A DNA stretch of 64,000 nucleotides, taken from contig CBDDIJ010000005.1 in the NCBI GenBank assembly GCA_965228855.1, positions 32,001-96,000 on the forward strand. Direction: 5' to 3'. Made by a program: the position numbers and the translations under genes. Each line of letters starts with the position of its first letter. Position 1 is the stretch's first letter. The DNA comes from Candidatus Obscuribacterales bacterium (GTDB lineage Bacteria > Cyanobacteriota > Vampirovibrionia > Obscuribacterales > Obscuribacteraceae). Positions 21,453 to 27,241 of this stretch are shown here, in pieces. Under the pieces are notes generated by a model. The model saw only the letters and a list, made by a program, of their open reading frames with translations. It made no database searches and was not told the origin of the DNA.

Positions 21453-21501
21453 TCAGACACCATGGGCTCGCTGAAGGATAATTGTTTCATTCTCTCAAAA
21501 G

Positions 21502-21587
21502 TGGCGGAGCAGGAGGGACTCGAACCCCCAACCCCTTTCGAGGCAGCCGCTTTCAAGGCGGTGTCTTCATCCAGCCAGGTCTGCTCC
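21502..21587 (-). tRNA. tRNA-Ser(UGA) with an atypical D-arm
   Basis: Acceptor stem GGAGCAG/CTGCTCC plus GCCA; anticodon loop CT-TGA-AA; long variable arm GCCTC-GAAA-GGGGT; T-arm GGGGG-TTCGAGT-CCCTC; G73 discriminator; CCA encoded. Confidence 0.9.
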
Positions 21588-21630
21588 ATAACTTTGCAAT
21601 ATACTCTATTCACGGTGCCTCTGAAAAGCT

Positions 21631-22569
21631 ATGGTAAATGAAACTTCAAGGAACCGCTTGCAGAATTCATCAATGACGCTCCCCGAAAACCAGAACAGCG
21701 AAACAATCAGCGAAGCGAAAAAGCCTTTCAATAAGGCGAAAATCAGACTCGACCTTGCGCTGGTCGAGCAGGGATTTTTTACAACCAGAAAAGAGGCCCA
21801 AACTGCCATCATGGATGGTGCGGTACTCGTGAACAATGAGAAGGTCACCAAATCTGGTGCCAACATATCTGGGACTGACAAACTGGCTCTTCGCCCGGGC
21901 TTCGCTAAACAAAAATATGTGAGTCGTGGAGGGTTAAAACTGGAAAAAGCCCTGGAACAGTTTCAAATCAAAATCCAGAATCGGATCTGCCTTGACGTGG
22001 GTGCGTCAACAGGCGGTTTCACAGATTGCTTGCTGCAACACGGTGCCTCCACGGTTTACGCTATTGATGTGGGATACGGTCAACTAGACTGGAAATTGAG
22101 GACGGATAAGAGAGTTGTCGTCAAAGAGAGAGTCAACGCACGCTATCTTGTTCCCCAGGAACTCTATGAGGATGGAGCGGAATGGGCTTCGCTAGCCGTA
22201 ATTGACTGCTCTTTCATTTCACTCGATAAAATATTGCCTGCCGTCGAAAAGCTTTTAGCCACAGACAATAGCGAGATCGTCTGTTTGATAAAGCCACAAT
22301 TCGAAGCGGGAAGAGATCAGGTAAAAAAGGGCGTGGTGCGTGACGGCAAAGTCCACCTCGAAGTTTTGCAAAGAACAGCAGAGCATGCTTCAGCACTGGG
22401 TTTCTATGTACACAAGTGTACGTTCTCACCGCTCAAGGGTCCGAAAGGCAATATCGAATATCTGATGCTACTTTCGAAAGCCTTCTGCACTGACAATTCC
22501 ATCGACTACGATGGTGAAGTAGCTCAAGCGATCGAGACTCTCAGAAATGCCAGTACAGAAGAAAGTTAG
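21631..22569 (+). CDS. tlyA: TlyA-family rRNA 2'-O-methyltransferase (start may be ATG 21673)
   Basis: S4 domain RLD..LV..G...R..AQ..I..G.V; motifs YVSRGGLKL, LDVGASTGGFTD, DVGYGQL, SFISL, LIKPQFE, GN.EY. Confidence 0.95.
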   Translation: MVNETSRNRLQNSSMTLPENQNSETISEAKKPFNKAKIRLDLALVEQGFFTTRKEAQTAIMDGAVLVNNEKVTKSGANISGTDKLALRPGFAKQKYVSRGGLKLEKALEQFQIKIQNRICLDVGASTGGFTDCLLQHGASTVYAIDVGYGQLDWKLRTDKRVVVKERVNARYLVPQELYEDGAEWASLAVIDCSFISLDKILPAVEKLLATDNSEIVCLIKPQFEAGRDQVKKGVVRDGKVHLEVLQRTAEHASALGFYVHKCTFSPLKGPKGNIEYLMLLSKAFCTDNSIDYDGEVAQAIETLRNASTEES

Positions 22570-23399
22570 CTCACCTTTTGACTGCCGAGGAACAAGCACC
22601 GTTCCTGAAGTTGCTCGAATAACTCGAGGGTGTGCACGACGACTTCCTGCGGGTCTGCGCCTCCGGACTCAGTCACAGCCATTGTGATCAACTCTGCGTA
22701 TGATACAGGTCCCCGAGCGACTCGCTCTACGACTTTTGCAGCGGCGTCTCCGAGTTCGAGAAAGCGCGCGTAAAACTCATCGGGATCTCGATAAATAGCC
22801 AAATTCGTGGCGTCCTTCTTAACGCGGCGCGGCAGCCGGACATCATCTCGGAGCCAATCGACGAGTTTAGCGATCGGATATTGATAATGACGAATAGCTA
22901 GCACCGAATTTAATACCGGTCCGTAAGCATTAAAGACCTCTGGGTTATCCAGAGCGATAGGCTCGCCGCGAATTTCTTTCGCATCACTCTCCATAATCTC
23001 AAGCTCGATCCATTCGTAATCGGCCAGTTCGGGAAGAAACCCATGGCGGGCCACGAGTTCAGGACAATCGACTTTCAGAAAATCGGAGAATGCGCTTGCT
23101 GCTTTGTTGAGATTGAAATGGGCGGGCAGTCTTAACTCGAAGTATCTGTCGACCAGTCTATTCCATTGCCGGGATAAGATTTTCTGACATCCGGGGTAAA
23201 TCGACTTCATCAAATCATGACGACCGTGACGAATCAGGGAAGCATAGAGACGAACACCACGCGGATCGATCTCCTGCGAAAAATCTTCGTCCTCGCCAAG
23301 ACAATCCGGTCGAGAACCTGATAGAAACTTGGTCCGCGCTTCATCCTGCGTCCACAGTGTAGATAGTGTCTGTTCTATTGTTTGAAGATTTTTTGTCAT
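22566..23399 (-). CDS. DUF2063-family MNIO partner protein (HvfC/BufC-like)
   Basis: Pattern G.RLY..L......L...YP....L..W..LV..YF...P......A..F.DFL......P.LADYEW.EL; directly downstream of the DUF692 gene. Confidence 0.85.
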   Translation of the reverse strand: MTKNLQTIEQTLSTLWTQDEARTKFLSGSRPDCLGEDEDFSQEIDPRGVRLYASLIRHGRHDLMKSIYPGCQKILSRQWNRLVDRYFELRLPAHFNLNKAASAFSDFLKVDCPELVARHGFLPELADYEWIELEIMESDAKEIRGEPIALDNPEVFNAYGPVLNSVLAIRHYQYPIAKLVDWLRDDVRLPRRVKKDATNLAIYRDPDEFYARFLELGDAAAKVVERVARGPVSYAELITMAVTESGGADPQEVVVHTLELFEQLQERCLFLGSQKVS

Positions 23400-23416
23400 T
23401 GTATTTGAGCGAACAA

Positions 23417-24433
23417 CTAGGCGCGCGCGCCCCGCTTCACCAAGCGTTTTGTGTCTGAATTCATGCGAATCACCTCAGCGTCATGACCGTCGCTATCGCG
23501 ATCGGGCGTCAGCTCCGAAGAGGGTGCTGCTTGCTCAGTTTCGGACGTAGCAGCGCAAGTTGAACCTGATTTCAAGTTCGCAAGCCTGGGCTGATAGTTA
23601 GCGGCAATCGTTCTTATCTGATGAAGCTCATCAAGAATTTCAGAGAACTCCGGGTAGTTCTGGTCGCGTTCAAGCATCACCGCGTTGACAGGTACTCTTG
23701 CCAGGACATAATCCAACAACTCGAAAACCGGCTCTATAACCGGATTTCCATGAGTGTCGATAATCATCTCCTCACCATGACTGTGACCGGCGACGTGCAT
23801 CTGTACGGTGCGCTCAATGGGAAGAGCATTCAAATACTTGTATGGATCAAAATTGTGGTTGATCGAATTGACATAGACATTGTTGACGTCAAGCAACAAG
23901 CCGCAATCAGCTTTTTCAAGAACGTCGGACAGGAACTGCACCTCGGTCAATTCAGAGCCGGGCATGTTCATGTAATAGGAAATATTTTCGAGCAACAGCG
24001 GACGTTCTATATAATCCTGCACAGTTTTTATGCGCTTCACGACATGCTGTATCGCTTCTTTCGACGTCGGCAGCGGAAGCAGATCGTGAAGATAGTGTCC
24101 GCCTATAGATGTGAAACACAAGTGGTCGCTAAACCATGGTGCATCGATGGTATCAAGCAATTTTTTGAGCGACTTCAAGTAGGTCTCGCTCAGAGGATCG
24201 GTACTTCCGATCGAAAGATTGACTCCATGGGTCACAAGGGGGAAAGCCGAGTTCGCCTGTTCAAGGCGCTCTCGAGCCATCCCCCCGAGATCCATGTAGT
24301 TTTCTGGAACCAGTTCAAGCCAGTCTATTTTGTCGGCACTGTTGAATGTTTCGTGAGCGAGTTCTCGGCGAAGACCAAGACCAACGCCCAATACAGGAAG
24401 GTTCTTCTTCGTTGTTAGGAAGTCGAAAGCCAT
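23417..24433 (-). CDS. DUF692-family multinuclear non-heme iron oxidase (MNIO; HvfB/BufB-like)
   Basis: Motifs GVGLGLR, E..PENY, HG..LSIG, SDHL, LLENISYY, LLDVNN.YVN, HVAGH, IDTHG, LERD. ATG 24433 has an AGGGG RBS. Confidence 0.95.
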   Translation of the reverse strand: MAFDFLTTKKNLPVLGVGLGLRRELAHETFNSADKIDWLELVPENYMDLGGMARERLEQANSAFPLVTHGVNLSIGSTDPLSETYLKSLKKLLDTIDAPWFSDHLCFTSIGGHYLHDLLPLPTSKEAIQHVVKRIKTVQDYIERPLLLENISYYMNMPGSELTEVQFLSDVLEKADCGLLLDVNNVYVNSINHNFDPYKYLNALPIERTVQMHVAGHSHGEEMIIDTHGNPVIEPVFELLDYVLARVPVNAVMLERDQNYPEFSEILDELHQIRTIAANYQPRLANLKSGSTCAATSETEQAAPSSELTPDRDSDGHDAEVIRMNSDTKRLVKRGARA

Positions 24434-24496
24434 ATTTTCCCCTGTAAACTGCGACCAACAAAGCACAAAAAAGGCTGGACGATTCCAGCCGAAAGA

Positions 24497-24826
24497 CTAC
24501 TCTGCTTTCTTCTCTTCGGTCTTGCAGGAGCCTTCTTTGCCCTTGCAGGAGCTCTCTTTGCCCTTGCAGGAGCCTTCTTTACCCTTGCAGGAGCCTTCTT
24601 TGCCCTTCGCAGCTTTCTTCTCTTTCTTTTCTTTCTTAGCTGGTTTTTCGTCTTTCTTAGCATCGGTCGCTGCTGCGTCATCAGCGAGATTTACTTTCTT
24701 GCTGATTTCCGAAGGGGAAGACGTTTCTTTGACCGAAAGCTCAGCTTTGTCAGCTGCGTTTGCTTGGCCTTGAAGTGCAAATCCTAGAACAGCAACCAAA
24801 GCTGCAGCTAGTTGTACCTTTTGCAT
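24497..24826 (-). CDS. secreted RiPP-like precursor peptide with 4x KGKE(G/S)SC repeats
   Basis: AGGAGG RBS; Sec signal peptide ending ..QANA; Lys/Glu-rich linker; four Cys in 7-aa repeats; immediately upstream of DUF692-DUF2063. Confidence 0.9.
   Translation of the reverse strand: MQKVQLAAALVAVLGFALQGQANAADKAELSVKETSSPSEISKKVNLADDAAATDAKKDEKPAKKEKKEKKAAKGKEGSCKGKEGSCKGKESSCKGKEGSCKTEEKKAE
24521..24604. repeat. 4 x 21-nt tandem repeat encoding the precursor core
   Basis: CTTGCAGGAGCCTTCTTTGCC and near-identical copies starting at 24521, 24542, 24563 and 24584. Confidence 0.95.
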
Positions 24827-24876
24827 CGTTGACCTCCTAATTAGGTGTGATGGTTATGGGCCCGTTGGGACCCTGA

Positions 24877-24930
24877 CTCCCTACTCGTACGTAAGTAGGG
24901 AGGATTAGTGTTCATGGTAGGGTACCATGA
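24877..24930 (-). promoter_or_regulatory. candidate ECF-type promoter overlapped by two inverted repeats upstream of the precursor gene
   Basis: Minus strand TGAACA-N17-CGTA (24914->24888). Inverted repeats CTCCCTACT-N8-AGTAGGGAG (24877-24902) and TCATGGTA-GGG-TACCATGA (24912-24930). Confidence 0.4.
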
Positions 24931-25180
24931 TTAACAAAAACCCATGTGAAGGTTATGGGCGTGTAAAATCTATCTGCCCGCTTCTGAAGGAATAAGTCCC
25001 TGCTACAATGCTGGCCTCTTGTTTGAGGCAACAGAACCGCAATATTTGATATTTATCTGTCGCATAGCCAGTCAATATCAGTTTTCAAGAGAAAAATCGT
25101 TTTTCCATCCTTATATATAGGTATATAAGAAACGCTGGGTAAAAATCACAACGCATACAGAAGGAAACAGTTCGGCAAAC

Positions 25181-25774
25181 ATGAGCAGCGACGTTAACAA
25201 GGCATTCAAAGAAACTTTGAGTAACTGGGCCTATATGGATATGGCACCACCGGATGTACTCGAAATGTCTCATCCACTTTTTTGCGAGAAACTCGGCGTT
25301 GATCCAAATGCGTTCTCATTTAAGTCATATGCACAACCTGGCGAATCGAAAGACTGGTATCAAGCTCCGTTCGAATTTCCGGATGTGATTGAAGGAACGA
25401 TGTACCTTTATCTCCCATCGCGATGGACAAGCGATATGAAACAGAGCAACGTCGCTCAAGTTCTCGAAGGTTCACGCGTAAGACAGACGTTGATTCTGGC
25501 AAGCAAAGAGGATTGGAAAAAATCACTCAACGACTTTTTCGATATCGGCGAAACCGCGGCTTTCGCGTACTATCCCGTTCATTTACCCTATTACGATCAG
25601 TGGGTTGCATGTGTAGACATGCAAGAAAAAATTTGGATCTATACGTTCTACGGCGCTGGTGATTGGATTTTGATATCCAAAGGCGATGCCGGTGGACGCA
25701 ACACGCTGGGATTGCAGATCACCTCATCGGTGCATTCAAGTCCGTGGTACAGCTGGATCGCAAGCGCACAATAG
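25181..25774 (+). CDS. hypothetical protein
   Basis: 197-aa ORF with an AAGGA RBS and aromatic-rich composition; no family recognised. Confidence 0.7.
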   Translation: MSSDVNKAFKETLSNWAYMDMAPPDVLEMSHPLFCEKLGVDPNAFSFKSYAQPGESKDWYQAPFEFPDVIEGTMYLYLPSRWTSDMKQSNVAQVLEGSRVRQTLILASKEDWKKSLNDFFDIGETAAFAYYPVHLPYYDQWVACVDMQEKIWIYTFYGAGDWILISKGDAGGRNTLGLQITSSVHSSPWYSWIASAQ

Positions 25775-26548: not shown

Positions 26549-27241
26549 TTAAGCGTTGTCTGCTGACGGCGCATCGTTAGTGGTCACCGGCGCTGCCTTA
26601 CGGGTTGCGCCTTTTTTCTTTCCGCCTTTTTTAGCTGCGGGCTTCTTAGCTGTCGACTTCTTAGCTGTTGCTTTCTTCTTGGTGGTAGCGCCAGCCTTTT
26701 TGGCGGCTGGTTTCTTAGCTGTCGACTTTTTAGCTCCGGTCTTTTTCGCTGCGGGCTTTTTAGCTGCTGCTTTTTTCTTTGGAGCTGCTTTCTTTGCTGC
26801 GGGCTTTTTAGCTGCTGCTTTTTTCTTTGGAGCTGCTTTCTTCGCTGCGGGCTTTTTAGCTGCTGCTTTTTTCTTTGGAGCTGCTTTTTTCGCTGCGGGC
26901 TTTTTAGCTGCTGCTTTTTTCTTTGGAGCTGCTTTTTTCGCTGCGGGCTTTTTAGCTGCTGCTTTTTTGGTAGCGGGCTTTTTAGCTGCTGGCTTTTTCT
27001 TAGCGGCTGCTTTCTTTGCTGCAGGTTTTTTAGCTGCAGTTTTTTTGGCTGCAGGTTTTTTAGCTGCCGATTTCTTCTTAGCTGCTGCTTTCTTCTTAGC
27101 CGGTTTCTTAGCGGCTGGTTTTGCATCTCCACCAGCTGTTGCTGCACGTTTAGGTGCTGCGCCAGCTGCCTTTTCTACAGTAGTTTCAGAAACGGTACCT
27201 GGTATTTTCCGTTCTTCGCTACCTTTTTCTTTGGTTGCCAT
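26549..27241 (-). CDS. histone H1-like Lys/Ala/Pro-rich nucleoid protein
   Basis: GGGAGG RBS; protein composed mostly of KKPAA/KKAAP pentapeptides (AlgP/Hc2-like composition). Confidence 0.85.
   Translation of the reverse strand: MATKEKGSEERKIPGTVSETTVEKAAGAAPKRAATAGGDAKPAAKKPAKKKAAAKKKSAAKKPAAKKTAAKKPAAKKAAAKKKPAAKKPATKKAAAKKPAAKKAAPKKKAAAKKPAAKKAAPKKKAAAKKPAAKKAAPKKKAAAKKPAAKKAAPKKKAAAKKPAAKKTGAKKSTAKKPAAKKAGATTKKKATAKKSTAKKPAAKKGGKKKGATRKAAPVTTNDAPSADNA
26742..26968. repeat. about 4.5 x 48-nt tandem repeat (KKPAAKKAAPKKKAAA)
   Basis: CTGCGGGCTTTTTAGCTGCTGC recurs at 26749, 26797, 26845, 26893 and 26941. Confidence 0.9.

Follow-up and report, generated by a model that had tools for sequence, protein, structure and literature searches.

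What does a three-gene operon make when a peptide with a predicted export signal and Ser-Cys-Lys repeats stands in front of an MNIO (DUF692) enzyme and its partner? The question is raised by a locus in a 64,000-nucleotide stretch of DNA from a Candidatus Obscuribacterales bacterium (hereafter, the window), where three genes in the order A-B-C, all on the minus strand, span positions 22566..24826 by open reading frame (ORF) reading. Judged by sequence, the precursor family and the enzyme branch found here together constitute an unnamed branch of the known captophorin class, set apart by its repeat, by a pair of active-site residues in the enzyme and by a common DNA motif upstream; and the operon probably directs the synthesis of a captophorin, a peptide that would acquire 5-thiooxazole on its Cys residues in the cytoplasm, leave through Sec and bind copper in the periplasm.

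The operon has the layout of the captophorin class

Gene A (24497..24826, minus strand) encodes a precursor of 109 amino acids (aa), with a predicted Sec signal at residues 1-24, a Lys/Glu-rich linker and four Cys heptads; gene B (23417..24433, minus) an MNIO of 338 aa, an iron enzyme that carries R22-R23, nine ligand-type residues, D257 and Q258; and gene C (22566..23399, minus) a partner of 277 aa made up of DUF2063 and an NGO1945 C-terminal (RRE-type) domain, the combination termed PME type 1 (PME1). Gaps of 63 nt (A-B) and 17 nt (B-C) separate the genes, the start of B being taken as the ATG at 24433; the ORF tool begins at a GTG 33 nt earlier. Four 21-nt units (24524..24607, minus) encode the KGKE(G/S)SC heptads, with Cys codons at 24587-89, 24566-68, 24545-47 and 24524-26, and TRF run on the window reports the same feature as a 21-nt unit repeated 4.3 times at 24521-24612 (score 154). 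The initial annotation had described three co-oriented, tightly packed genes over this span, a 109-aa precursor with four Cys in 7-aa repeats from a 21-nt tandem repeat, a DUF692 enzyme with intact-looking metal ligands and a DUF2063 partner; ORF calls, residue positions together with TRF, and Pfam scores together with a ligand alignment bear out this description in turn. Its identification of precursor, DUF692 and DUF2063 as the bufferin/oxazolin layout also holds in gene order and family assignment.

More than 20,000 captophorin clusters are known. The layout that defines them, as given in the available parts of PMC12452194 and PMC13097082, is ABC order with a PF05114 enzyme, a partner of DUF2063 plus RRE, and a signal-bearing Cys precursor; the window operon presents a PF05114 enzyme with intact ligands, an adjacent PME1 and, in first place, a signal-bearing Cys precursor. 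Characterised MNIO-PME1 products all carry 5-thiooxazole and generally bind copper (PMC13097082), and it is because the layout is that of the captophorin class that 5-thiooxazole formation and copper binding are likely here. Bufferin and oxazolin had been treated in the initial annotation as two systems with Cys-derived heterocycles; the heterocycles stand, but oxazolin has since been reassigned to 5-thiooxazole (available parts of PMC13097082 and 10.64898/2026.06.05.730506) and the two are therefore one class. By analogy with these characterised members, we infer the substrate pairing, ring chemistry, export and copper binding of the window operon.

The precursor defines an unnamed family

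The Cys residues of A lie at positions 80, 87, 94 and 101, in KGKEGSC, KGKEGSC, KGKESSC and KGKEGSC respectively. Its predicted signal peptide was read by eye from a basic N-end, a hydrophobic stretch and Ala-Asn-Ala at 22-24, and of 34 relatives in the alignment at least 90% share Ala24; the predicted mature peptide, approximately residues 25-109, would have a mass of 8.96 kDa unmodified. Structure prediction for A is of low confidence (pLDDT 51, pTM 0.15) and yields the signal helix only; the ESM Atlas returned for it low-complexity clusters only, all under 0.9.

A has no Pfam or NCBIfam precursor match: there is no hit to HvfA (NF050188) at E up to 1, none to BufA2 (NF050166) and none to DUF2282. 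The comparison with the HvfA and BufA models, proposed in the initial annotation, is thus negative for both, and the HvfA and BufA2 models do respond to other peptides from the Obscuribacterales lineage. Protein homologues of A number 86, the named ones all being ‘hypothetical’. On these profile searches A does not qualify as a precursor of any of the three named families, is not to be filed as HvfA or BufA, and defines an unnamed precursor family; the case is less secure against remote relatives of the precursor beyond the lineage.

A DNA pattern for GKEGSCKGKE, scanned over species-representative genomes, returned 77 stretches, from 74 of which the precursor ORF was recovered by script: 55 just upstream of an MNIO, 18 stand-alone and 1 at a contig end. 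With the repeat directly upstream of an MNIO in 55/74 loci, the operon association is not chance; the A-to-B distance in linked loci is 25-119 nt, measured to the start of the enzyme match. The 68 distinct family precursors carry 1-14 Cys each (432 in all), of which 424 are followed by Lys, 376 preceded by Ser and 314 set in EGSCK, with a spacing of 7 in 296 cases, statistics that are partly set by the search pattern itself. Lys precedes Cys in just 2/432 cases; A itself has Cys-Lys at 4/4 Cys and no EGKCG. In the EGSCK core, the Glu-Gly frame known from EGKCG peptides meets the Cys-Lys of bufferin 2 (Buf2).

In the RefSeq precursor table of PMC13097082, EGSCK occurs once, in an unrelated Buf2 peptide; EGSC occurs 1,087 times (many of the shown rows being EGSCG within EGKCG peptides) and SCKGK 331 times. 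The table holds no Obscuribacter or Melainabacteria entry, and the enzyme table of the same paper lists two Vampirovibrio pairs. The view of the initial annotation that the core differs from known types stands in part: the EGSCK heptad combination is unlisted, but Cys-Lys precursors are already one of the three published captophorin groups (PMC13097082) and EGSC is common. Amongst the papers listed by full-text searches (core motif; lineage with MNIO; captophorin/thiooxazole), none, as judged from the listings, gives an account of the KGKE(G/S)SC family. A close relative of B, MBX9667069.1 (83% identical), appears once in the available part of the accession spreadsheet of PMC12452194, under the PME-type-1 MNIOs of the large network cluster, and the precursor accession of its locus is absent from the named precursor columns there; the KGKE(G/S)SC ORFs may therefore stand in Table S2 of that paper, which by the account of its text gives hundreds of small ORFs, some 4,000 enzymes of the large cluster being without an assigned precursor family.

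In 14/55 linked loci (L040, L046, L049, L053, L059, L063 and 8 more) a second precursor, with an HvfA-like CG(K/E)GSCG cassette that continues into a conserved TD(E/K)KGA stretch, lies upstream; one peptide of this type matches the HvfA model weakly (E 0.0028). We also note intermediate precursors in L150, L178 and L182. In another family of the class, ESSCAA repeats go with a Gln enzyme; hybrids that combine CGKGSCG and E(S/A)SCK go with an Asp enzyme and have a DUF1223-like gene next to them.

The enzyme pairs an Arg-Arg motif with Gln beside the catalytic Asp

B scores 352 bits against PF05114, and its ligand-type residues (H69, H104, E149, D182, N185, H213, D226, H228 and E255; pattern HHEDNHDHE), together with the catalytic Asp, D257, are identical in all reference groups. 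Amongst NCBIfam models it passes the bufferin maturase cut-off narrowly (315.6 bits; cut-off 310) and lies below that of HvfB (316.1; cut-off 360). Both domains of C are above cut-off (DUF2063, 36.5 bits; NGO1945_C, 32.9 bits), the NCBIfam HvfC cut-off is not reached (88 against 142 bits), and phmmer found no PDB match for it. The operon is set apart from methanobactin (MbnABC) by B missing the MbnB cut-off (54 bits against 325) and by a partner of DUF2063 rather than MbnC type. A complex prediction of B, C and mature A scored 0.86, its control keeping 0.75, and is not used as evidence.

In the published specificity model the relevant FonB residues are Arg15, Arg16, Asp249 and Phe250, and Cys-Lys enzymes carry Asp where FonB has this Phe (PMC13097082); one sentence of that paper gives the second Arg to the Cys-Lys family, contrary to its own logo description, and our reference enzymes agree with the logos. 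An alignment with 3BWW shows RR at 22-23 of B and matches its ERDQN to ERDFN in 3BWW. R22, R23, D257, Q258 and the nine ligand-type residues are kept in 60/60 distinct linked enzyme cores. EGKCG references (n = 3) have R at 23 and F at 258; Buf2 references (n = 8) have Asp or Gly at 258 (Asp in 6/8) and R23 in 1/8; and precursor-less paralogues of the order have Q258 in 13/13 and R23 in 2/13. R23, then, tracks the Glu-bearing precursor. In other families of the class, related enzymes are accompanied by precursors of the Lys-Cys type.

Set against the EGKCG (Lys-Cys) captophorins HvfABC, FonABC, NgoABC and MmrABC (oxazolin, fontiphorin, gonophorin and bulbicupramide), the window operon shares the ABC order, the signal peptide, C-terminal Cys repeats of variable number that start Glu-Gly, and an enzyme with Arg-Arg near its N-terminus; its minimal three-gene form is that of fon and mmr (available parts of PMC13097082 and PMC12538549). 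It differs in its core (EGSCK with a 7-residue period, against pairs of EGKCG in oxazolin-type peptides) and in the residue that follows the catalytic Asp (Gln, against Phe); and, unlike HvfABC, it has no HvfA match, lies below the HvfB and HvfC cut-offs and has no DoxX adjacent. The likeness to bufferin 2 (BufA2B2C2 of Caulobacter vibrioides; BUF_6/12Cys) lies in Cys followed by Lys-Gly, the signal peptide, the PME1 partner and the BufB cut-off being passed, and the precursor falls within the loose published category ‘multiple Cys-Lys motifs’ (Cys-Lys group). By comparison, however, the window family lacks the fixed 6/12-Cys pattern (4 here, 1-14 overall), a BufA2 match and a confident fold, whilst its enzyme keeps Arg23 and has Gln at 258 instead of Asp/Gly. 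Bufferin 1 (Buf1; DUF2282; BufA1B1C1D1) has the same enzyme class, partner type and export route, but the window precursor has no DUF2282 match, and no DoxX, sigma or NrsF gene is adjacent to the operon.

The enzyme branch lies apart from the bufferin clade

Our 41-row trees take 10 of the approximately 62 linked enzymes, the longest branches (L006, L125 and L146-148) and other, redundant rows being left out. A starred clade (100/99 and 99/99) unites the Buf1/Buf2 enzymes in these trees and does not contain B, in agreement with a quick 112-row tree, and the three proteobacterial EGKCG references form a clade of their own, with B outside. By approximately unbiased (AU) test, a grouping of B with the Buf2 enzymes is rejected (p = 1e-39 and 9e-10), as is one with the whole Buf clade (p = 0.017 and 0.008; one Buf1 reference in the tree); union with the EGKCG enzymes is not (p = 0.26 and 0.25), B lying outside the three-reference clade, and monophyly of the linked enzymes, which the trees do not show, is not rejected either (p = 0.45). 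Since the Buf2 grouping is rejected, it is unlikely, as far as these trees go, that the Cys-Lys core came along with a Buf2 enzyme. Descent from EGKCG enzymes, our first reading of the trees, was dropped, the mixture-model tree supporting no direction.

A branch that belongs to neither the proteobacterial EGKCG clade nor the Buf clade could in principle install another kind of group on Cys, such as a ring or cross-link involving the flanking Ser or Lys. Gln beside the catalytic Asp in 60/60 cores, the near-invariant Lys after Cys and the many different reactions catalysed by MNIOs (available part of PMC12452194) would agree with this. Saying this, C is a true PME type 1 partner, B passes the BufB cut-off, union with the EGKCG enzymes is not rejected, and a change of Phe250 in FonB altered substrate tolerance and left the product the same (PMC13097082); we regard such chemistry as quite improbable.

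Proposed mechanism and points against it

For the thiooxazole captophorin that we favour, B and C would together oxidise each heptad Cys to 5-thiooxazole, with a mass change of -4 Da each and up to -16 Da for the peptide, which would then be exported by Sec and bind excess copper in the periplasm. Arg22/Arg23 may read the Glu of EGSCK, and Gln258, replacing the Phe of EGKCG enzymes, may admit the Lys after Cys. The mature peptide would probably be a flexible chain with evenly spaced rings, its capacity tuned by repeat number.

Several observations weigh against this scheme. FonBC is unable to act on substrates in which Lys follows Cys (PMC13097082), and the window enzyme must for that reason differ from the characterised EGKCG enzymes; a characterised enzyme with Gln at the Phe250 site was not found in the literature examined, and the FonB residue numbers used here were mapped by motif, through 3BWW and a Neisseria locus, and not by aligning FonB itself. 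Q258 is present in 7/10 long fusion-type paralogues as well as in all 13 precursor-less ones, which marks it as a trait of the clade. It therefore does not count as separate evidence that the enzyme selects Cys-Lys, and because the precursor-less paralogues share it we have dropped it as proof of such selection. The mixture-model tree places the linked enzymes outside a group (91/98, not starred) of EGKCG plus Buf enzymes, which leaves the chemistry without a safe bracket of characterised members. Finally, our neighbourhood survey finds no copper, DoxX or sigma gene recurring beside linked loci, and family copies without an enzyme adjoin oxidative-repair genes.

With this locus the captophorins gain an unnamed precursor family and enzyme branch, and with them a natural test of the published specificity model, in which FonBC rejects Cys-Lys and the Buf2 enzymes are proposed to accept it via Asp; the present branch appears to reach Cys-Lys separately, by Arg-Arg plus Gln. 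Cys-Gly precursors in some members point to a more permissive enzyme, maybe useful for making thiooxazole peptides.

Distribution and chromosomal neighbourhood

Of the 77 pattern matches, 64 have Obscuribacter-, Melainabacteria or cyanobacterial bins as source titles; the remaining 13, generic or assigned to other groups, hold the same peptides. The closest named relatives are Candidatus Obscuribacterales, with an enzyme 97% identical. Within the Obscuribacterales, an order related to cyanobacteria but not photosynthetic, PF05114 is matched in 102/107 genomes and a looser precursor pattern in 97/107, single matches of which include chance hits according to a control. Amongst 75 loci (the 74 and the window), an alpha/beta hydrolase gene lies upstream in 40, a divergent 197-aa gene in 35, a convergent TlyA gene in 30 and a downstream YceI gene in 16, the latter, where present, following the partner gene. 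These shared neighbours suggest that the operon has been inherited vertically at a fixed chromosomal site. As the enzyme family is present in 102/107 genomes and chromosomal neighbours are kept, the operon looks like a part of the routine envelope physiology of an uncultured group. RNA libraries from two studies gave contigs over the precursor in three runs, two of which also reach the start of B. As such contigs may include DNA, and small shares were retrieved with this sequence itself, we make no claim of expression from them.

Upstream motif and stand-alone copies

Upstream of A, which has a ribosome-binding site AGGAGG (24831..24840, minus), conservation reveals a motif of two TT(T/A)AC-like half sites 11 bp apart (24951..24970, minus), anchored in 53/54 distinct upstream regions of MNIO-linked members. 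Two weaker boxes follow, TTAAT then TA(G/C)(G/C)ATG (24910..24934, minus; from column conservation), the second being a possible -10 element; a sigma-70 consensus scan gave no site at these boxes. When neither the window nor its nearest relative contributes to the matrix, the window site is the top and sole clear match in the genome (41.4, against 23.2 for the next and a maximum of 26.6 in a reversed-genome control), and a regulon search found no second site above background. The motif is a likely regulator or sigma-factor site, and may be of the OmpR or extracytoplasmic function (ECF) type. Two inverted repeats upstream of A, considered as operators, were discarded, being not conserved beyond close relatives. 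Between A and B, a terminator-like hairpin with a T run (24467..24490, minus), one of 6 such sites against 3.2 expected in shuffles and weak alone, would favour the precursor over the enzyme transcript.

The family loci without an adjacent MNIO number 19, namely the 18 true stand-alone copies, with MNIO absent within the 2.5 kb fetched, and the one at a contig end; their neighbours are a divergent ECF sigma gene in 17, MsrAB in 16 and a zinc-finger anti-sigma gene in 13. The stand-alone copies lack the two-half-site motif and have an ECF-like promoter pattern in 17/18 cases. The arrangement mirrors that of H. influenzae, in which HOCl induces a DUF692/DUF2063/DoxX cluster through RpoE2, which also drives msrAB (available part of PMC7907618).

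Together, the ECF-MsrAB neighbours, the ECF-like promoters and the H. influenzae precedent raise the prospect of a peptide with the same ring chemistry whose main job is protection from periplasmic oxidants (hypochlorite, peroxide), metal binding being secondary. The window operon, however, carries a different upstream motif; the ECF/anti-sigma/MsrAB locus is present in this genome, with no second precursor copy; the stand-alone loci are kin and not independent events; and MsrAB co-regulation fits copper binding too, oxazolin itself binding copper. We hold this role to be rather unlikely. That the linked copy has its own motif whilst the stand-alone copies sit with ECF-MsrAB bears on whether the family answers stress from copper, from oxidants or from the two alike.

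A plain Cys-rich periplasmic metal or redox buffer, left unmodified by a B that acts elsewhere, would account for the 18 members without MNIO, for the many MNIO paralogues of the order without a visible precursor, and for the hairpin that separates A from B. It sits poorly with A lying so closely upstream of B in the linked loci and with R23 tracking precursor presence; moreover, for 12/18 stand-alone copies the 77 matches include a linked copy from the same assembly, making modification in trans possible. We consider it highly improbable.

A more far-reaching interpretation, which we also judge unlikely, would take the Obscuribacterales MNIO branch as apart from both characterised thiooxazole-forming groups, with Gln beside the catalytic base going with a modification unseen so far on Ser-Cys-Lys heptads; the product would then defend the envelope throughout nearly the whole order, under regulation of its own, and satellite precursors controlled by an ECF-MsrAB switch would act as an oxidant sink and not a copper store. 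The copper-binding thiooxazole peptide remains our preferred reading.

Stand-alone KEGSC precursors (L044, L052, L054, L057, L058, L060, L061 and 11 more) carry up to 14 Cys, some with a TPR protein or DUF1223 gene downstream.

Paralogues and other features of the window

Three other MNIOs are found in this genome. The first belongs to a Buf2-like lipoprotein operon, the second lies behind a membrane protein whose tail is of Gly/Cys type, and the third is divergent. The operon of the first (L005:5843-7912) encodes a Buf2-like lipoprotein precursor with 6 Cys, an MNIO above the BufB cut-off and a partner, with a divergent two-component pair beside it. Small genomes of the order (L008, L009, L011-L013, L016, L023) hold Buf2-clade enzymes with shortened precursors of 2-4 Cys (SCKGKSGC-like). 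Possible MNIO-partner fusions, frames of approximately 590-830 aa with long C-terminal extensions, several of them partner-like by eye, also occur in the order (L163, L164, L167, L168, L176, L180, L184, L185, L187, L188), mostly without an adjacent Cys precursor; a further set of MNIO paralogues has Gln258 and no Arg23, with no precursor found upstream (L170, L172-L175, L177, L179, L181, L183).

As the initial annotation had it, no DoxX or sigma gene adjoins the operon in the ORF and Pfam annotation of the window; DoxX has three matches elsewhere in the genome. The 197-aa gene (25181-25774, plus strand), divergent to the operon and sharing its upstream region, has no Pfam or NCBIfam match and is a candidate neighbour or regulator; a DUF7941 lead for it was set aside, its ESM Atlas score being below 0.9. 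A tRNA-like stretch noticed by eye at about 21500-21590 (minus), between a SpoIID-domain gene and TlyA, was likewise set aside, ARAGORN making no call there. At 26549-27241 (minus) the window encodes a histone H1-like (HC2) Lys/Ala repeat protein with a 48-nt tandem repeat.

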